The notes: generated by a model not told the origin, from the letters alone. DNA of 32,000 nt from Gemmata obscuriglobus (GCF_008065095.1 NZ_CP042911.1:7770001-7802000); one strand, 5' to 3'; shown: positions 3,684-30,800, numbered from the stretch's first letter. Translations and numbers: made by a program.

Positions 3684-4333
3684 CGCTGTTCCGGTTCGAG
3701 CAGTTCTGTGGCGGTCGGCGTGACCCGATTCAGCGGCAGTGCGTAGTACGGGGTGCGGCCGAGCCGAGAGAACCCCATGCGCCGGTAGTACCGCCGCAGT
3801 CGCACGGTCGCGGCCCGCCGCTCCTCGTCGGTCGCGTACGGCGTGAGCCACCGGGGCGGCACCCGGAGCGACCCGGCCGCATCGTGCCGGAGCGGAGAGA
3901 TGTCGCTGACCGCCAGCCCGCACCCGCTCCCGATGAGGTCTACCAATTTGCGGACGGCCAGGAGCCCGAGCTTCAGCTTCCGCCACTTCGGTGACAGTAC
4001 GACGTAGTCGAGCACCAGCAGGTCGGGTTCGGCGGCATCGAACCGGGCCATCACCTCCTCGCGGAAGTGGTAGCGTTCCGGTTCGTACAGGAGGGCGTGC
4101 AGGTAATTCAGTTCGCCACTGTGGCTGTCGCACACGTCGAACAGCGACTCGCCCGCGTTGTGGGCCAGGGCGGCGTGGACCCGCATCGCGGCCACGCGAC
4201 CAACTTTTGTGACGGCCCCGGTTTCGTCGTCCACGCAGGTGATGACGCCCGCGTACTCGGACACGAAATCGCTCGGCTCGCCGTCCGGGTGTAAGCTGGC
4301 GCCGGTCCGTAACTCGATGTTGAAGCTGGCCAT
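3680..4333 (-). CDS. Hypothetical protein, possibly GNAT-like acetyltransferase fold
   Basis: 217-aa ORF with an ATG start and strong G/C third-position bias. VVLSPKWRKLKLGLLAVRKLVDLIG resembles the GNAT beta4-alpha3 acetyl-CoA motif (R/Q-x-x-G-x-G/A), and RRYYRRMGFSRLG resembles the GNAT C-terminal helix. The fold call is motif-level only. Confidence 0.6.
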   Translation of the reverse strand: MASFNIELRTGASLHPDGEPSDFVSEYAGVITCVDDETGAVTKVGRVAAMRVHAALAHNAGESLFDVCDSHSGELNYLHALLYEPERYHFREEVMARFDAAEPDLLVLDYVVLSPKWRKLKLGLLAVRKLVDLIGSGCGLAVSDISPLRHDAAGSLRVPPRWLTPYATDEERRAATVRLRRYYRRMGFSRLGRTPYYALPLNRVTPTATELLEPEQR

Positions 4334-14132: not shown

Positions 14133-15428
14133 CTAAGGTGCGATCCAGGCGCGGTTGATGAGAATCGTGCCGTCACGCGACCCGGCATACTCGCCCTTGA
14201 TGGTCACCGGGGAGCCCGGCTTGAACCGATCGCTCTGCGACTTGGTGTGGAACGACAGAGCGGCCCGGATCTTACCCTTGCCGCCGCCCTTTTTGCCGGG
14301 GCCGGTCACGATCAGTATCGACTCGTTCTCCACCCTTTCCACGAACGCGCCGGTGATCGTGATCGCCTTCTCGTTGTACTTCTCGTCGGTCGCGCCCGCG
14401 GCGCGAGCGTAATCGTTCAGCAGCGCGGACGCGGGAACCGTCGGGTTCGGGTCCAGGCCGGCACCCTCGAAAGTGGCGTCGGTCACGTTTACATACAGAT
14501 CAGCGACATTTCCCACGCATTTGCCCTTCACCTTGACCGTTTGCCCGCGGGACGCGCTAAAGAATCTGTTCGTGTCGTCCTTTCGCATTTGAACGCGCAC
14601 GCTCATGCCGATGAACTGTCCCGGCGGTGGTGGGAGCCCGTCCAGAGACACGATCGCCTCGTCCTTGATGCCTTCGGTGATGTCGCTGAGCTTGCCCTCA
14701 ACGATGAGGGTCCTGTTCGTGTACTTCTCGCGGGCGGCGGTGGCGTCGGCTTTAAACTCGCGCACCAGTTCCTCGGCCGTAATGCTGATCGGTGGCCTGT
14801 TGGCGTTTTTTTCGGCCTGATCGGCCTTGTTTTTCAGATCGTTTGCGACCTCCTGAACCCGGTCGCCGGCCTTTTGCAGGACGTAATAGACGCCGAACGA
14901 CACGCCGCTGCAGCACAAGATTAACGAGCCGAATACGATGGCGAGAATGAGGGGCAGTTTGGACCGACCCTTTTTGCCAGCGGGCCGTTCTCCGTCATCG
15001 TCGTAGTCGTCGTCGCGTCGGCGCTTCTTCCTCACCGGGCGGTCGTCGTAGTCGTCGTCGGGGCTCTTGCGCTTGCTCCTTTTTGCGACCGGTTCGTCGT
15101 TCCGGTCGTCGCCGCGGTCCCGGCGTGCGGGCCTCTCGCCCCGTTCGTCGCCCCGCGTGCGGCTATCGGTCCGGGGCTCGGCTGGCCTCTCGCCCTTCGG
15201 CTCCTCCGTTTCGTTGACGACCTCGAACGGGTTCTGCGCCGCCTTCGGTTCTTGGGGCACCGGTGGGAGCGGCGAGGGTAATGCCGGCTTCGATGCAGAA
15301 GGGGCCGCGGCAGACGCAGTGCCCGGGATCACGCCCCCGCATTTGGGGCACCTGACCGCGCGGCCGGCGTACTCGTCCTTCACCGACAGCGCCGCCGAAC
15401 ACGACGGGCACACCAAACGGATCGGCAT
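14133..15428 (-). CDS. Zinc-ribbon membrane protein with two C-terminal OB-fold (tRNA_anti-like) domains
   Basis: ATG at 15428 is preceded by AGGAGA. N-terminal zinc ribbon CPSC...CPKC, then an Arg/Asp-rich low-complexity region. TM helix LPLILAIVFGSLILCCSGVSFGVYYVL. Two repeats of the tRNA_anti-like pattern (TAEELVREFKADATAAREKYTNRTLIVEGKL...; ASALLNDYARAAGATDEKYNEKAITITGAF...). Confidence 0.85.
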   Translation of the reverse strand: MPIRLVCPSCSAALSVKDEYAGRAVRCPKCGGVIPGTASAAAPSASKPALPSPLPPVPQEPKAAQNPFEVVNETEEPKGERPAEPRTDSRTRGDERGERPARRDRGDDRNDEPVAKRSKRKSPDDDYDDRPVRKKRRRDDDYDDDGERPAGKKGRSKLPLILAIVFGSLILCCSGVSFGVYYVLQKAGDRVQEVANDLKNKADQAEKNANRPPISITAEELVREFKADATAAREKYTNRTLIVEGKLSDITEGIKDEAIVSLDGLPPPPGQFIGMSVRVQMRKDDTNRFFSASRGQTVKVKGKCVGNVADLYVNVTDATFEGAGLDPNPTVPASALLNDYARAAGATDEKYNEKAITITGAFVERVENESILIVTGPGKKGGGKGKIRAALSFHTKSQSDRFKPGSPVTIKGEYAGSRDGTILINRAWIAP

Positions 15429-24610: not shown

Positions 24611-24645
24611 GGCCGGGGGAGAGTTGCGGTTTAAGAGGGTGTGGT

Positions 24646-24695
24646 GCGCGAGCGGGGGCGGGTGTGCCAATTGGTACCCCCGCCCCCGCTCGCGC
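24646..24695. terminator. GC-rich palindrome between convergent genes (bidirectional terminator candidate)
   Basis: GCGCGAGCGGGGGCGGG at 24646..24662 pairs perfectly with 24679..24695. The 16-nt spacer is itself near-palindromic (GTGCCAATTGGTAC). Confidence 0.55.
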
Positions 24696-24741
24696 GGGGG
24701 GCAAAGAGATCACCCATCGAAAGCACGTGACTACTTTGGCG

Positions 24742-25434
24742 TTAGTAGCTCAAATTGGATGCGAATAATACCCGACCGTTGTCGTTTGCGAACAGCCGAA
24801 GGTCACCATCTTGGGAAATCACGAACACCAAAGCTTGTGGAACGCGACGGCACAGGGCGTAGGCAGATTTGTGGCGTTCTCCGAACGATTTCAGCAATAT
24901 TGCGGCCGGCACATCGGTTTTGCTTGCGAGGTCGTGGCAGTCGCCAAGAACGCCTTCTGCATTCTTTTCGATAGAGCCGCCAAAGCCACGAAGCACTAAT
25001 CGTCGGTCGAGCACTACACACCCATCTGCGGCTGCGAGGTGGCCAACAGAAGACAGCCGACGGCGCCATCTGTGCGCGGTCACTCGCTTCAGTTCTACCG
25101 CATCCAAGTGGTCTGTGTTCGGGCCCCGAGCTGACGACCAGAGCACACTGAGTGAAGCCCATAAGTCGCGCAACTCCTCGCCGAGATCGACAGGAGCAAT
25201 CGGACTTGCAATTTTCAGTGGCGCGGACCCGGGGTCGGGCAAAATAGCAAACGCACCCCCATGCCCGAGTGCAATTGCCTCGCGTAGGATCAACGATAAT
25301 GCGATGAATATGTCTTTATGTATATTCGGAGTTGATAAGTGTGCGTTTTCTTGCAAAATTGCATCTAGCTTATCGTAATCTTCGATTATCGACTTGCAAT
25401 CAGGTACACTATATGGCAATTCGTAAGCGTTCAC
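24742..25434 (-). pseudogene. C-terminal fragment (DisA_N/diadenylate-cyclase-like domain) of a gene split by IS66 insertion
   Basis: The apparent start GTG AAC GCT TAC lies inside the IS terminal repeat. After the duplicated GAATTGCC the frame continues the upstream fragment. Ordered motifs GHGGAFAIL, AADGCVVLD, FGERHKSA and VFVISQDGDLRLF parallel the DisA_N motifs (G-ALIV, DGA, RHR, VS..G). The composition is A+T-richer. Confidence 0.75.
25415..25422. repeat. Target-site duplication copy 1 (GGCAATTC)
   Basis: This 8-mer directly abuts the IS end at 25423 and is identical to 26999..27006. Confidence 0.85.
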
Positions 25435-26998
25435 GGGTGATGCGGCAGTGTATCAACAGTTGGCGAGTAGCGGATTCACAACGTTCTGTTGTTGAGCTTC
25501 AGCTGGAACGAGCGTCGGTGCCTTCGCGCCGGTCCGGTGTGCGGTGACGGCGTCGATGAGGAACGCCAAGACGTTGCGCTTCTGGCGGCGGCACGAGGCG
25601 ATCACCGTGAGGATTCGTTCCACGAACCGGCTCCCGCGTTCGCTGTCGGTCCCGAAGCTGGTTTTGCGCCAGCACACGGCGTGACGCACCTCACGCTCGG
25701 CCGCGTTGTTGGTCGGTTCCACGCCGACGACACGCGCGAACGTCCACAACGACGCCTCGACCGACAACAGTTCCGCGCAGGTCGTGGCGGTCTTGGCGCA
25801 GCCGCACGCCGCCCCGTTCCGCAGGTGCGTGCCGACCTGACGACGCAACGCGGGGATGTAGGTCGAGCGACATGTGGACCGCGCGAGGGTTCCGTCCCGC
25901 ACCCGATACCAGTTCTCGAACAGGGCGTCCGAACACGCCAACAGAGCCGCGCCGATCGCCTGTCCGGAACCGCCCCGGTCGATCATCGCCTGGAAATCGC
26001 GTCGCAGGTGCGCCCAGCAGAGTTGACGCTTGTACTTGTCGAGGTGCGTGTACACCGGATACCGGTCCGTCGTATGCACGGCCGTGGACCCGGCACGCAG
26101 GTCATCAAAGGCGGCCCGGCCCCGGGTCCGGCGGATCAGGAACGCCACCACGAACGTGGTCACGGCGGCCCACAGCCAGGCCCGCTGACGCCCCTGCTTC
26201 CAACCGGTCTCGTCCACGTTGGCCGGGTGCCCGCGGGTGTACACCAGGGCCTGTTCGGCCACCGGCTTCAGCGCCTCGGCGGTTCGGTGCTGGAGCTTGC
26301 ACACCATGGCCGGGCTCAGGGGCAGGCCGAACAGATCGTCGAACAGTTGGCTCGTGCCCCGCTTGCCCAGACGGCACGAGCCGGTGAGAAGCGCGGCCAC
26401 CGCCTGCGCCCGGGGGCCGTATCCGGTGCGCGCCTCCGACGGCACCGCGGGCACCGTGGTCGTGCCGCAGTGGGGGCACCGGAGCCGGTGGCACCGATAC
26501 TCGGTCACGTGGGGTTTGATAACGGGCAACTCGTGGACCTGATGAATGGCCGGAGCCGGATCGTCCCCGGCCAGCGACCGCGAGCAGTCCCGGCACACGG
26601 ACGGCTTGAGGGTCCGGATCTCATCGGGTGGCAGGAGCGTGCGCTCGGCTTTGGGATGCCCCGGTTGCCCGCCCCGACGCTTCCCCGAAGGGGCCTTGGG
26701 CGGGGCCAGTTTCACCTGCGGAGGATCGGACGAGGGCGGCTTCGACGAGTTGGTGGAGCTCTGGTTGAGTCGGGCCTTGAGTTCGGCGACCTCGGCCACC
26801 AGAGCAGTGATCGTGGCCTCCAAGGCGCGAATATACGCCACCACCGCCGGTGGTAAGTTATCGGGCAGTTCCGGCGGTTGAGGAACAGGCGTCATGACGT
26901 CTGCTCGATTACGGAACATGCCCGCTTGTGGCAACCGCGTATCCAAACGGGCTAAAATGACGGGCAAAAGCGGGTGGCGCACCCCCATGAACGCTTAC
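25423..26998 (-). mobile_element. IS66-family insertion sequence, single-ORF (ISBst12-like) type, 1576 bp
   Basis: Both termini read GTAAGCGTTCA inward (11/11 identical, then a degenerate GGG-rich repeat). It is flanked by an 8-bp direct repeat and encodes one IS66 TnpC-like transposase. Its G+C is higher than that of the gene it interrupts. Confidence 0.9.
25453..26895 (-). CDS. IS66-family transposase (TnpC-like)
   Basis: ATG at 26895. N-terminal coiled-coil LEATITALVAEVAELKARLNQSSTNSSKPPSSDPP (the IS66 hallmark NSSKPPSSD). Zinc-finger-like CRDC...CPHCG, then the DDE region with DETGW. About 480 aa. Confidence 0.9.
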   Translation of the reverse strand: MTPVPQPPELPDNLPPAVVAYIRALEATITALVAEVAELKARLNQSSTNSSKPPSSDPPQVKLAPPKAPSGKRRGGQPGHPKAERTLLPPDEIRTLKPSVCRDCSRSLAGDDPAPAIHQVHELPVIKPHVTEYRCHRLRCPHCGTTTVPAVPSEARTGYGPRAQAVAALLTGSCRLGKRGTSQLFDDLFGLPLSPAMVCKLQHRTAEALKPVAEQALVYTRGHPANVDETGWKQGRQRAWLWAAVTTFVVAFLIRRTRGRAAFDDLRAGSTAVHTTDRYPVYTHLDKYKRQLCWAHLRRDFQAMIDRGGSGQAIGAALLACSDALFENWYRVRDGTLARSTCRSTYIPALRRQVGTHLRNGAACGCAKTATTCAELLSVEASLWTFARVVGVEPTNNAAEREVRHAVCWRKTSFGTDSERGSRFVERILTVIASCRRQKRNVLAFLIDAVTAHRTGAKAPTLVPAEAQQQNVVNPLLANC

Positions 26999-27765
26999 GG
27001 CAATTCTTTAAACTTATTAACGCATTCGCGAGAAAATTCTGCGAGCCATCGTCCTACAGGTTCAACACTAAAAAACGGGGTGTGCGTAACGAACTGGTCT
27101 GCGTGCAATGCGAAGGATGCTCTGCCCTCGGAAACGCGGAGATGGCCGGGGCCAACAATTTCAATCAAAAGAGCAGAAGAGGGGCTCCACAGGCTTGGCA
27201 TATCGAGCACGCCGCGATCACGGCCTTCCCGGTCCAGAAGAGCCAAACCTGTTACTTGTAGCGTCCCGTTTTCTTCCGTGACAGTGATAGCACCGTCAGG
27301 TTTGATTAGCAACGGCGCGAGTTTGATGAGTGGTTTGTAGTCTGTGAGGGGTATAGGTTCAGTGAATCGGTAGCTATGGTGCTTTTGGTCCTCCTCAGCG
27401 AGGTGCGTCCTGATGAAAGGATCGGCCAATATCCGTAGCGCAAGAGCAGAAATGGAATTTGGTGGTAGCCAAGATTCTGCCTTCACAACCACTCGGGCGC
27501 GTATCGATCTCCCCTCGTCCGTACGAAAGCTCGCGCGGTATGCTAGGGTAAGTAAGAGCCCAAGGTTTTCGTTATTGATCGCAGCCAAGGTCGTCAAAGA
27601 ACGGCCGCGCACCTTGCGCTCTGCACGGATGAACTCACGGAACTCGATTAAGAGTTGGGTAAGTCCCTTCACGCCTTCAGCTTCTTGAACGCGCGGTTGC
27701 CAAGAAATTATCCCTTCGTTACCTTCGGCTTCGGAATCGAAGATGATAACTTGGGGGAGCATCAT
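26995..27765 (-). pseudogene. N-terminal fragment (unrecognised ~255-aa domain) of the gene split by IS66 insertion
   Basis: ATG ATG start at 27765. The ORF ends ...KFKELP at a TAA built from the IS terminal GTAAGCG (CCG|TAA). It is in frame with 24742..25422 once the IS and one duplication copy are removed. The composition is A+T-richer. Confidence 0.75.
26999..27006. repeat. Target-site duplication copy 2 (GGCAATTC)
   Basis: This 8-mer directly abuts the IS end at 26998 and is identical to 25415..25422. Confidence 0.85.
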
Positions 27766-27801
27766 CGGATGCCTCGATGCTGGCTAAGGCAGGCGCCCGG
27801 G

Positions 27802-27837
27802 GCGTGTGCGAGGGACAACGTTGTCCCTCGCGCACGC
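27802..27837 (-). terminator. 18-bp-arm palindrome downstream of putA (terminator candidate)
   Basis: GCGTGTGCGAGGGACAAC|GTTGTCCCTCGCGCACGC. One T-G position is a G-U pair on the plus strand and an A-C mismatch on the minus strand. It lies 39 nt after the putA stop and 37 nt before the start of the disrupted gene. Confidence 0.5.
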
Positions 27838-27875
27838 ATCGAACTCGCACGGAGAAGTTTGGAGCGGCGCTTCAA

Positions 27876-30800
27876 TCACTCCCCCGCGGCGGTCTCCGGG
27901 GCGAACCCGCGGCGCATCTGGTTCTCGGTGATGGTCCGCGGCAGCACGAACTGCAACAGGTAGTCCGGGCCGCCGGCCTTCGAGCCGATCCCGCTCAGTT
28001 TGAACCCGCCGAACGGCTGGCGGTCCACCAGCGCACCCGTGCACTTGCGGTTGATGTACAGGTTCCCGACCCGGAACTTGCGCTTCACCTTCTCCAGGTG
28101 GCTCGGGCTGCGGCTGTAGCACCCGCCCGTCAGCGCGTACTTCGTGCCGTTCGCGATCCGCAGCGCGTCGTCCAGGTCCCTCGCCCGGAGCACCGACAGC
28201 ACCGGCCCGAAGATCTCCTCCTGCGCGACGCCGGCCGTTTCGGGCACGTCCGCGAAGATCGTCGGCGGGACGAAGTAGCCCTGCTCGGCGAGCGCGCCGA
28301 GGTCGGTCTGGTGGGCCAGACGCGACTCACGCTTTCCGGCTTCAATGAACTTCAGGATGCGGTCCCGGGCTTCGGCGTCGATGACCGGCCCCAGCGAGCA
28401 GCCCGGATCGTCCGCGGCCTTCACCGCGAGGCTCTTGGTCGCCTCGACGAGCCGGTTCAAGAACTGGTCGTAGATCCCGTCCAGCACGATCGCCCGCGAC
28501 CCGGCCGAGCACTTCTGCCCGCCGTACCCGAACGCCGAATCGACCACGCCCTTCACGGCCTCGTCGAGGTCGGCGTCGGAATCCACGATGACGGCGTTCT
28601 TGCCGCCCATCTCCGCGATCACCTTCTTCACGAAGTTCTGGCCGCCGGGCGTCTTCGACGCCTGCTCGTTGATGAGCAGCGCGACCTTCAGCGACCCCGT
28701 GAAGGCGATGAGGGCCACGTCCGGGTGCTGAACGAGCGGCGGGCCGATGACATCGCCGTCGCCGGGGAGGAAGTTCACGACGCCCGGGGGCGCCCCGGCG
28801 GCCTGGAGGCACTCCATCAGCTTCGCGCCGATGATGCCGGACTGCTCCGCGGGCTTGAGGACGACCGTGTTGCCCGCCACCAGCGCCGCCGTCGCCATCC
28901 CCGCCAGGATCGCGAGCGGGAAGTTCCACGGCGCGATCACCACCGCCACGCCGCGGGGCTCGTAGAAGTAGCGGTTGTCTTCGCCGGGCACGTCGCGCGC
29001 CTGCGGCGCGCCGAGCTTTTCCATCTCAACCGCGTAATACTCGCAGAAGTCGATCGCCTCGGCGACATCGGCGTCGGACTCGCGCCACGGCTTGCCGGTC
29101 TCGAGCACGATCCACGCGGACAGCTCGAAGCGCCGCTTGCGGAACTGCTCCGCGAGCCGGCGCAGCAGCCCGGTGCGCTCGGCGAGGGGCGTGTCGCGCC
29201 ACCCGTCGAACGCCGCGAGGCACGACGCCACCGCCCGGTTCGCCTGGTCCACGGTCGCCATCCCGACCTTGCCGAGCACCTCGGACTTGCGCGACGGGTT
29301 CTCGCGGGCCAGAACGGCCCCGACGGGCTGCGGCTTGTTGTCGATGACGATCGGGTACGTGCGCCCGAGTTCCTTGCGCACCTGATCGAGCGCCGCGCTC
29401 ATGGCGGTGCGGCTCGCCGCGACGGAGAAGTCCGTGAGCGGCTCATTCTTGAATGCGGAACGCGGGGCCTGCGAACCGTGTGCCTCAACAACCGCGTGCC
29501 CGGCGCTGCCCATGTCGTGTGTCCCGTTGGTGTCCTTCGGTTCCGCGTTCCGCGTTCCGCGTTCCGCATTGGATGCGGGGTTCGTCAGCAACAACTCTTC
29601 GGCCAGCCCTTCGGCGAAGCCCTGCCGCAGGAACGAGTCGTTCGAGGAGTTTTCGAGCAGCCGGCGCACGAGGTACGCCATCCCGGGGAGCAGTTGCCCG
29701 TAGGGGGTGTAGATGCGCACCCGGTGGCCGAGCGACTGGATCGCCTCCTTGATCGGGTCGGCCATCCCGTAGAGCATCTGGAACTCGTACCGCCGCGGGG
29801 GCACGCCGAGCTTCTCCGCCACCGCCAGGGCGTGCGAGATGCTGCGGATGTTGTGCGACCCGAACGCGGGCACCAGCCACTCCACGTTCGCCAGCAGGAA
29901 CTCCGTGAGCTTCTCGAAGTTCGCGTCCGACTGCCACTTTTTCGTGAAGACCGGAACCGGCCAGTGGTTCTGCGCCGCGACCACGGTTTCGTAGTCCCAG
30001 TACGCCCCCTTCACCAGCCGGATCCAGACCGGGCACTTGCGAACGTCCCGCGCCCACGCGAGCAGCGCGTGGAGGTCCGCCTCGGTGTCCGTCAGGTACG
30101 CCTGGATCGCGATGCCGACGTGCGGCCAGTCGCGGAACTCGGGCTCGGTCAGGATGTCGCGGAAGATCTGGAGCGTCACGTCCTTGAAGCTGTGCTGCTC
30201 CATGTCGAAGTTGACGAACGCGCCCGTCTGCTTCGCGAGGCTCAAAATGGGCCGCAGCCGCCGGCACACGGCGCGGGACGTGCCCGCGGGGTCGATCGGG
30301 TCGAACTGGCTGAACAGCGCCGAGAGCTTCACCGACACGTTCACCCGCGGGATCGGGCCGCGGTCGTCGCGGTCGATCGTCGGCTCCTCGGGCCAGTCGT
30401 TCACCTCGCGGGTGAGCCCGGCGAGCAGGTCTAGGTACTGCTTCTGGACGTGGTCCGCCTCGACCTCCGTGATCGTGGCCTCGCCGAGCAGGTCGATGGT
30501 GAACGCGAGCCGCCGGGTGCGCATCTGGTGGACCGCGGCGACGGCCTCCTGCACGTTGGACCCGGCGATGAACTTGCGGGCCATCTGCTCCGCGCCCTTC
30601 TGCGACGCGAACGCCAACCCCTGACCCAGAATCCCCCTATCGGGAATCAGCTTCGTGCCCAATCGCACCCACCACGGCAGCTCGTCCTTGGCCTCGTTGA
30701 GGTACTCGCGGAGGTGCCGGGCCACCTCCTTCGGCTCCTTGAGGTACGGGAGCGTGTCCACGAACCGGAAGAGCTGCACCTTGAGCGCCGGGTCGTGCAT

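Follow-up and report, generated by a model that had tools for sequence, protein, structure and literature searches.

An IS66-family element splits a DACNV-diadenylate cyclase-like gene in a lineage-specific islet of Gemmata obscuriglobus

Our analysis of a 32,000-nucleotide (nt) stretch of DNA from the Gemmata obscuriglobus type strain (NZ_CP042911.1:7770001-7802000; hereafter the window, with positions counted from its first letter) revealed that two coding sequences (CDSs) annotated separately in RefSeq are the two halves of a single pseudogene, disrupted by an insertion sequence (IS) of the IS66 family. The N-terminal half, WP_148087953.1 (GobsT_65810), carries the RefSeq name "putative sensor domain DACNV-containing protein," while the C-terminal half, WP_148087952.1, is called from a GTG in the IS end and named "hypothetical protein." By domain match, architecture, and conserved residues, the repaired product is a member of the catalogued, uncharacterized DACNV family, and structural modeling indicates that its "hypothetical" half is a domain with the fold of a diadenylate cyclase (DAC). 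We propose, with a probability of roughly 0.85, that a single DACNV-DAC gene was acquired horizontally and was recently disrupted by the resident element ISGob4. The gene and its present remnants are placed as follows.

27007..27765, minus strand: N-terminal part of the gene, codons 1-253 of the 479-amino-acid (aa) gene, from the open reading frame (ORF) list and reconstruction
26995..27765, minus strand: present N-terminal CDS (WP_148087953.1), ending in a TAA supplied by the IS
24742..25422, minus strand: C-terminal part of the gene, codons 254-479 plus the stop, from the ORF list and reconstruction
24742..25434, minus strand: present C-terminal CDS (WP_148087952.1), 230 aa, with a GTG start in the IS inverted repeat

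The two minus-strand ORFs that flank the IS, evident both in the ORF list and on reading the sequence, encode 256 aa (26995..27765) and 230 aa (24742..25434). Deleting the IS and one copy of its flanking octamer in silico joined them into a 1440-nt ORF of 479 aa, which has no further lesion and reads ...NKFKELPYSVPDCKS... across the junction. A previous reading of this stretch, made from the sequence alone (the sequence-only reading), had proposed one gene of ~479 aa split by an IS66 insertion; its coordinates and ORFs reproduce, collinear homologs support the single gene, and the in-frame join of 256 + 223 aa that it described is borne out by the excision. The same holds for its remark that the present stop and start of the fragments are made of IS terminal sequence. 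Both the TAA of the N fragment and the GTG of the C fragment consist of letters of the IS terminus, and this GTG, together with the first four codons of the C fragment, lies inside the ISGob4 inverted repeat.

Using the repaired 479-aa protein as a query, we identified 96 database relatives, mostly of 430-490 aa, the best of which is 55% identical at 100% coverage. Because all 96 proteins align collinearly with the repaired protein over the junction, the split of one gene is far beyond chance, and the full-length relatives that cover 100% of the repaired protein prove the single-gene architecture. An uninterrupted G. obscuriglobus allele was not found: the 2008 draft has the same insertion, and in the read-level Logan assemblies the sequence either contains the IS or is interrupted at it, with short-read assemblies stopping at the IS ends. 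The suggestion that related Gemmataceae be searched for the uninterrupted allele was productive in one respect, an empty site in Gemmata algarum reached through an exact-sequence cluster look-up (described below), and not in the other, as an intact allele was not found.

The element itself has the following parts.

25423..26998, minus strand (same orientation as the split gene): ISGob4, IS66 family, single ORF, 1576 bp, 67% G+C, from inverted-repeat comparison and transposase profiles
26988-26998 and 25423-25433: terminal inverted repeats of ISGob4, from inverted-repeat comparison
26999..27006, minus strand: target-site duplication on the N-fragment side, abutting the IS end
25415..25422, minus strand: target-site duplication on the C-fragment side, abutting the IS end
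25453..26988, minus strand: ISGob4 transposase ORF, 511 aa from the first ATG (public annotations start later, giving 480 or 448 aa)

The 8-bp duplication, GAATTGCC on the minus strand and GGCAATTC on the plus strand, occurs exactly twice in the window, which confirms the shared 8-mer that had been seen at both junctions. The element starts with GTAAGCGTTCA and ends with TGAACGCTTAC; these inverted repeats open with GTAAGCG and match at 11/11 positions, or at 14/15 when extended. A further exact copy of the terminus is absent from the window, where the closest sequence is one match with 1 mismatch at 14409-14419. Against the NF033517 profile ("IS66 family transposase") the transposase scores 297.8 bits (cutoff, 180), and it matches PF03050 (E=1.3e-29), DUF6444, and zf-IS66 in Pfam. 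NCBI names it "IS66-like element ISGob4 family transposase" under several accessions per assembly, and we therefore regard ISGob4 as multicopy in G. obscuriglobus. With classical IS66 it shares a DDE_Tnp_IS66 transposase, terminal inverted repeats, and an 8-bp duplication, whereas the accessory genes tnpA and tnpB of the three-ORF form are lacking, neither being present in the ORF list of the 1576 bp. We take it to belong to the single-ORF IS66 subgroup.

The insertion appears to be recent, because the duplication is 8/8 identical, the inverted repeats are intact, and both halves of the gene are otherwise undamaged. In the AlphaFold models, the insertion point corresponds to the loop that links the two domains (aa 254-259), with helix 235-253 before it and helix 260-278 after it; since the break falls in this loop, both domains are left whole. 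Nonetheless, with the N-terminal domain ending at the IS stop and the DAC domain without a start of its own, the Gemmata copy is nonfunctional as a regulated enzyme.

A different reading of the same arrangement is that the IS uncoupled the DAC from its regulator, with the 230-aa C fragment being produced from the GTG by transposase read-through as a minimal DAC free of regulation. The element and the gene indeed share one orientation, the in-frame GTG lies on the same strand as the transposase and 16 nt past its stop codon, the break in the loop spares both domains, and PGAP annotates a CDS for the C fragment. In addition, minimal DACs of other systems show activity as stand-alone proteins (10.64898/2026.08.10.743927). 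We consider such uncoupling quite improbable, however, given that the C fragment has no recognizable ribosome-binding site or promoter (two weak promoter-like matches lie in the gene body, misplaced for the GTG), that an unregulated cyclase is likelier to be toxic than useful, and that a neutral insertion gives the same pattern.

The assignment of the repaired protein to its family rests first on its N-terminal domain.

27244..27570, minus strand: match to PF21751 (DACNV), aa 66-174, hmmscan E=5.8e-10, 39.7 bits

This score for PF21751 ("Probable sensor domain DACNV"), obtained with hmmscan on the repaired protein, compares with a gathering cutoff of 27. The HMMER comparison with N-terminal sensor families that the sequence-only reading had recommended thus yielded a match above the gathering score, and its description of the N-terminal domain as unknown was mistaken, given that the N fragment already bears the DACNV name in RefSeq. 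We attribute the definition of DACNV, as one of several N-terminal domain families, to Galperin 2023 (J Bacteriol 205:e0002323). A full-text literature search for "DACNV" returned no relevant paper, no PADLOC or NCBIfam model matched the repaired protein, and a Pfam scan found neither DACNG nor DACNH in it at E<=10.

To describe the family, we built a profile from 73 of the 96 relatives and searched it against 1.84 billion representatives of clusters at 50% identity. The search recovered 3924 of these clusters at E<=1e-3, and 1062 when the threshold was E<=1e-30; on the latter count the family is large. Most of the top 150 representatives matched profile positions 1-434 of 435, and their lengths were mostly 400-480 aa. 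Named sources include Planctomycetaceae, Thermoguttaceae, Phycisphaerae, Terriglobia, and Nostoc. With other members of the family the repaired protein shares a PF21751 match above threshold, the collinear architecture of 430-490 aa, and all of the family-invariant residues. The Gemmata copy differs in being split by ISGob4 and annotated as two CDSs, in carrying a GERHK variant of the RHR motif that is common to its closest relatives, and in lying in a low-G+C islet of a high-G+C planctomycete.

Some relatives carry additional modules. In P0217 and P0092, from Nostoc and relatives, pentapeptide repeats (E=4e-50) precede the DACNV-DAC unit, and in P0214 (810 aa) an NHL/PknD-like beta-propeller does so. 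These extra N-terminal modules are consistent with added sensor or interaction domains.

Conservation was counted over 73 full-length homologs, with the repaired protein included. Ten residues are invariant in 73/73 sequences: S79, E84, G308, D386, G387, R436, S456, Q457, D458, and G459. Near-invariant positions are H307, G309, F311, C388 (72/73), H437 (72/73), S439, and A440. Within the DACNV domain, where S79 and E84 lie, G85, R86, and E164 are near-invariant as well. Position 438 is R in 37/73 and K in 23/73.

The C-terminal half contains the putative cyclase, whose domain and motifs are located as follows.

24745..25317, minus strand: DAC-fold domain, aa 289-479, from AlphaFold, Foldseek, and hhalign
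25249-25263, minus strand: HGGAF motif, located by script
25018-25026, minus strand: DGC motif, located by script
24868-24876, minus strand: RHK motif, located by script
24802-24816, minus strand: SQDGD motif, located by script

All four motifs reported by the sequence-only reading are present and in the order given there, and its proposal of a DAC-like C-terminal half is upheld by the fold, by the ordered motifs, and by DAC sequence matches that are weak but consistent. An alignment-based AlphaFold2 model (predicted local distance difference test score [pLDDT], 91.6; predicted template modeling [TM] score, 0.90) was compared with the PDB using Foldseek, and the first 21 matches were all DACs, 20/21 of them at a probability of 0.97-1.00. 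They include CdaA of S. pneumoniae and L. monocytogenes, DisA of M. tuberculosis and M. smegmatis, and DacM of Mycoplasma. The alignments span 183-194 columns (322 in one low-probability match), with E values from 8.6e-4, and the target-normalized TM scores are ~0.5 for CdaA and DacM and 0.22-0.44 for DisA. The comparison of a predicted structure with DisA and CdaA, which had been put forward as a check, thus returned the DAC fold.

Sequence profiles point the same way. When a profile of the C-terminal domain was searched against PDB sequences, DACs made up 14/15 of the top matches, aligned on GTRHRxA...VVSE. Against a CdaA profile, hhalign gave a probability of 79-81% (E ~1e-5); that profile was made of real CdaA sequences, retrieved with a 108-aa CdaA-like probe that served for retrieval only. 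The alignment pairs DGC with DGA, G(E/T)RH(K/R)SA with GTRHRAA, and VFVISQ with IVVSE, and GERHKSA...VFVISQDGD of the repaired protein stands against GTRHRAA...FVVSEETG in solved CdaA chains; the placement of DGC on the DGA of CdaA comes from a greedy hhalign alignment of low local confidence at that point. The proteins of PF02457, namely CdaA/DacA, DisA, and CdaM, share with DACNV-DAC the fold and the order of the four motifs, which read IGALI, DGA, GTRHR, and VSEETG in canonical DACs versus HGGAF, DGC, G(T/E)RH(R/K), and ISQDGD in DACNV-DAC. The transmembrane helices of CdaA and the DNA-binding HhH domain of DisA are missing from DACNV-DAC, which has a soluble N-terminal domain of 250 aa instead.

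Several observations weigh against reading this domain as a cyclase. The PF02457 (DAC) model scores the repaired protein at only 16.5 bits (cutoff, 27; E=0.0066) over aa 429-466, a match spanning profile positions 80-116 only. An invariant DGC replaces DGA, HGGAF replaces GALI, and residues are added between the motifs: ~35 between motifs 1 and 2, where a helical hairpin (aa 333-386) is inserted, and ~18 between motifs 2 and 3, relative to canonical DACs. Sub-threshold PF02457 matches recur in 17/18 family members, with a best E of 5.9e-6. In the model, then, the C-terminal half has the DAC fold, with a sequence score below the Pfam DAC threshold. The search for DisA_N that had been advised for this part of the protein accordingly found fold and motifs, while the PF02457 gathering score was not reached. 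The longer motif spacing relative to DisA that had been pointed out is real, consisting of the hairpin and the ~18 residues. As had also been noted, DGC and RHK depart from the canonical residues; they are norms of the family, and therefore not a sign of decay in the Gemmata copy.

These departures could also be taken to mean that the C-terminal domain, though derived from a DAC, is a pseudoenzyme or a nucleotide receptor and not a cyclase, the protein then binding a nucleotide or putting the fold to some other use. The Pfam score below threshold, the family-wide fixation of DGC and HGGAF, and the large insertions fit such a protein, and noncatalytic derivatives of DACs do exist, DACNH being reported as one (10.64898/2026.08.10.743972, citing Galperin 2023). 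Against it, D386, G387, R436, S456, and D458 are invariant and H437 is nearly so, and all are chemically equivalent to catalytic or substrate-binding residues of CdaA. Such a pattern marks an active site that is conserved and not degenerate, and the A-to-C change in DGA is conservative. We judge a pseudoenzyme unlikely and think that the intact protein is probably, although by no means certainly, an active cyclase.

Under the proposed DACNV-DAC reading, the gene would have entered G. obscuriglobus at the junction of putA and the TIGR03000 gene, which converge, and ISGob4 would then have jumped into the linker between the two domains, after codon 256. In the intact protein, two DAC domains would pair head to head, each binding a metal-complexed nucleoside triphosphate through D386/G387, R436/H437, and S456/D458, with DGC taking the part of DGA, RHK serving as the RHR-type motif, and SQDGD taking the part of VSEETG. 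By analogy with DAC enzymology, as laid out by the structures of DisA and CdaA, D386 and D458 may hold the metal, and R436/H437 and S456 the phosphates. The paired domains would make a cyclic dinucleotide, either cyclic di-AMP (c-di-AMP) or a variant; c-di-AMP specifically is a plausible product, at somewhat less than even odds. The N-terminal domain would gate the cyclase reaction through some ligand or partner, and since no partner gene is conserved, the signal would presumably be read by unlinked receptors.

Modeled alone, the N-terminal portion (aa 1-256; window 26998-27765) gave an AlphaFold pLDDT of 89.6, and a Foldseek search of the PDB with this model returned no convincing solved match. 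The best match was weak, to the DAC domain of M. tuberculosis DisA (E=0.13; probability, 0.77; 161 columns). DACNH, an N-terminal domain of other DACs, is reported to be a distant DAC relative minus the catalytic residues (10.64898/2026.08.10.743972). Given the weak DisA match, DACNV might likewise be a dead DAC relative; profile comparisons lent this no support. An internal duplication of the DAC domain had no support at the sequence level, as hhalign gave a probability of 0.3% for the N-terminal half against the C-terminal half and of 0.6% for the N-terminal half against the CdaA profile. A BFVD search had no match, and single-sequence PDB searches with two homologs found no DAC, yielding in the DACNV region a nonsignificant pyruvate-kinase match (E~1.2) that we did not use.

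We also examined where the gene came from, for which the surrounding segment and its palindromes are as follows.

24614..27875, no strand: G. obscuriglobus-specific islet, delimited by BLASTN against Gemmata algarum JC717 (L167)
24646..24695, no strand: G+C-rich palindrome with 17-bp perfect arms; folding energy -58 kcal/mol, z -5.3; unique in the window
27802..27837, no strand: G+C-rich palindrome; fold z -3.1; unique in the window

The islet is 3262 bp long, or 1678 bp at 54% G+C minus the IS and one copy of the duplication, and is bounded by the stop codons of a convergent gene pair. One of these genes encodes a TIGR03000-domain protein and the other, putA, a bifunctional PutA-type proline dehydrogenase/P5C dehydrogenase, which confirms the location given by the sequence-only reading. 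The gene order of Gemmata algarum JC717 is that of the window, with an S41 peptidase, the TIGR03000 gene (plus strand), putA (minus strand), and a Ser/Thr kinase. Nucleotide identity of the flanking genes between the two species is 92% and 98% (BLASTN), and homology ends at 24613 and resumes at 27876. At this junction, Gemmata algarum has an unrelated spacer of 214 bp.

The composition of the gene likewise sets it apart from its flanks, in agreement with the A+T-richer islet that had been described. G+C drops from 67-68% in the flanks to 52.5% in the repaired gene; the IS stands at 67%. The G+C content of the repaired gene at third codon positions (GC3) is 0.53, versus 0.94 for putA, 0.93 for the S41 peptidase, 0.90 for the TIGR03000 gene, and 0.91 for the Ser/Thr kinase; the ISGob4 transposase is at 0.82. 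Because the site is empty in Gemmata algarum and GC3 is 0.53 against 0.90-0.94, we place the acquisition in the G. obscuriglobus lineage. The same two lines of evidence back the earlier suggestion of horizontal acquisition and, read together with the insertion, support a gene that was horizontally acquired and later hit by a resident IS.

Presence and absence in two species alone give no direction, so the gene could in principle be ancestral at this site and have been deleted in Gemmata algarum and other relatives. We find this very improbable, given the GC3 contrast with all four neighboring host genes and the best homolog, which is 55% identical and comes from unrelated metagenome contigs. 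Moreover, the sequence downstream of putA holds no DACNV-DAC gene in an Urbifossiella metagenome-assembled genome (MAG) and in a Fimbriiglobus MAG. With a third Gemmataceae MAG (L007) included, the kinase-putA side is kept in 2/3 of these MAGs and not in the Urbifossiella MAG. A contig scan with the PutA C-terminus gave no clean empty site: relatives at 80-91% identity have other genes downstream of putA or a contig end there. The closest putA relative in the species-representative genomes (84-91% aa identity), in the Planctomycetia MAG JAKEEV010000358.1 (L007), is on a contig whose end coincides with the putA 3' end, at 4117-4119. This contig end is uninformative on absence of the gene, and the same junction may be repeat-bearing or variable there. 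At the flanks of the islet we found neither an integrase nor a tRNA, and direct repeats of >=8 bp were likewise absent.

The two GC-rich palindromes that had been described as bracketing the gene are real. The first (24646..24695) lies between the convergent stops of the TIGR03000 gene (24610) and the DAC gene (24742) and is probably a bidirectional terminator hairpin, while the second (27802..27837) lies between the putA stop (27876) and the start of the DAC gene (27765) and is probably the putA terminator. Both are inside the lineage-specific segment, each just 3' of a host stop codon. The spacer of Gemmata algarum (L167:7234-7447) has nested palindromes, with two copies of GCACAGGGCTTCCGCCCTGTGC, a long-range inverted pair made up of GTCCGGCGACCCCTCCGGGG and CCCCGGAGGGGCCGGCGGAC, and, at its center, a hairpin flanked by A/T; it bears no relation to the two G. 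obscuriglobus palindromes and brings to mind either a REP/MITE-like element or a compound bidirectional terminator. Contig ABGO01000233.1 of the 2008 draft (L169) matches the window at 100% identity between 32000 and 24686; there, midway through the palindrome at 24646-24695, it diverges into sequence that encodes an HTH_Tnp_1 (IS3-type) ORF (L169:12248-12889). This divergence is probably a misassembly of the draft at the palindrome, the alternative being a structural variant.

The gene neighborhoods of homologs bear on function. We sampled 86 homolog loci, which form 43 groups at 70% identity, and the only neighbor clusters common to >2 of the 43 groups were Ser/Thr kinases. From 36/43 groups, representing metagenome-only loci and more distant members with many short contigs, we collected 111 neighbor ORFs. 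No Pfam family occurred in >3 of these ORFs, and the only recurrent PADLOC matches among them were generic Ser/Thr kinases (3 ORFs). In the window, no effector of the 2TM-beta or Cap15-like type and no CD-NTase lies beside the gene, consistent with the earlier statement that no effector gene is adjacent. A search of IMG/VR found no relative.

At closer range, defense-type neighbors, confirmed with PADLOC, occur at 3/7 of the closest homolog loci with long contigs. P0003, which is 50% identical (L001:668-8058; Planctomycetaceae MAG PNLP01000028.1), adjoins a TIR protein (PADLOC PDC-S66 / SAVED-TIR / ThsB-like), and its locus, which also encodes a phage-type integrase, an excisionase-type HTH_17 protein, and an AAA_25 protein, looks like an integrative element. 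P0021 (L004:154-8392; JGI metagenome contig Ga0498931_0001340) lies 25 bp downstream of three overlapping genes that share its orientation, for a DEAD/MZB helicase-Ser/Thr kinase fusion, a NERD-kinase (PglW-like), and a RecQ/DpdF-like helicase (PADLOC DpdF, E=2e-89); with P0021 the block looks like a four-gene operon, and it could be a defense system that uses the predicted cyclase. P0044 lies near a PDC-S37/Hhe-type helicase-nuclease (PADLOC, E=8e-172). The contexts of P0007 and P0025 look like housekeeping ones.

Two preprints of August 2026 place other DAC proteins in defense, among them the minimal PanS and CdaG/DS-2C with its DACNG-DACNH-DAC architecture, and report that defense DAC genes average ~10% lower G+C than their hosts (10.64898/2026.08.10.743927, 10.64898/2026.08.10.743972). 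The remodeled, asymmetric DAC site of PanS makes cUA (10.64898/2026.08.10.743927). CdaG/DS-2C proteins (~550-575 aa, in CBASS-type operons) resemble DACNV-DAC in their large N-terminal region, divergent C-terminal DAC, and low G+C; DACNV-DAC differs in having neither DACNG nor DACNH and in the absence of an adjacent CD-NTase or 2TM-beta effector, here or in homologs. With PanS/PanE (PanDA / Panoptoo) it has in common a DAC outside osmotic and cell-wall homeostasis on mobile DNA, whereas PanS is ~150 aa long, constitutive, and always paired with a 2TM-beta effector, none of which holds for the 479-aa DACNV-DAC.

This raises the question of whether the intact gene was an anti-phage module, in which the N-terminal domain would sense infection and the DAC signal would arrest the cell through an unlinked effector or host c-di-AMP targets, its loss to an IS being the usual turnover of defense genes. 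The gene is ~15 points lower in G+C than its host, or 40 points at GC3, and makes up a single-gene islet where the junction is variable. P0003, P0021, and P0044 stand beside defense-type genes, and the preprints show other DAC proteins acting in defense. On the other side, no PADLOC model matches the protein, no neighbor is conserved over the 43 groups, the 111 neighbor ORFs offer generic kinases only, P0007 and P0025 are housekeeping-like, and IMG/VR holds no relative; the defense preprints do not mention DACNV, and 3/7 loci is anecdotal. With three of seven loci of defense type, two of housekeeping type, and no conserved partner, we keep defense as a tentative rival and not as the leading explanation. 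Of the signaling or defense module that had been suggested, the single-gene DACNV-DAC architecture stands, while the defense part remains anecdotal, with no conserved partner in the wider sample.

A more far-reaching possibility, which we regard as doubtful, is that the family is an unrecognized class of stand-alone nucleotide-signaling enzymes whose N-terminal domain would be degenerate and DAC-like, pairing with the DAC or masking it as a pseudo-dimer. In such a scheme the HGGAF/DGC site might make a noncanonical product, as PanS makes cUA, and the protein might act as a one-gene sensor of infection or stress, with the Gemmata copy recently acquired and silenced.

For annotation, WP_148087953.1 and WP_148087952.1 are better treated as one pseudogene, with the "hypothetical" half predicted to be a DAC-fold domain. 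The locus offers a clean, datable case of a nucleotide-signaling gene that was probably gained and then inactivated by an IS in a planctomycete, while a sister species keeps the empty site. The DACNV family itself was already known, as Pfam PF21751 and as a RefSeq name. What is new here is modest: two CDSs are one gene, the DAC half is recognized, and the gene appears to have been imported recently, its empty site being still preserved. Being broken, the Gemmata copy contributes little beyond this, but an intact family member would be a reasonable target for enzymology, as DACs have now been shown to act in defense and to make products beyond c-di-AMP.

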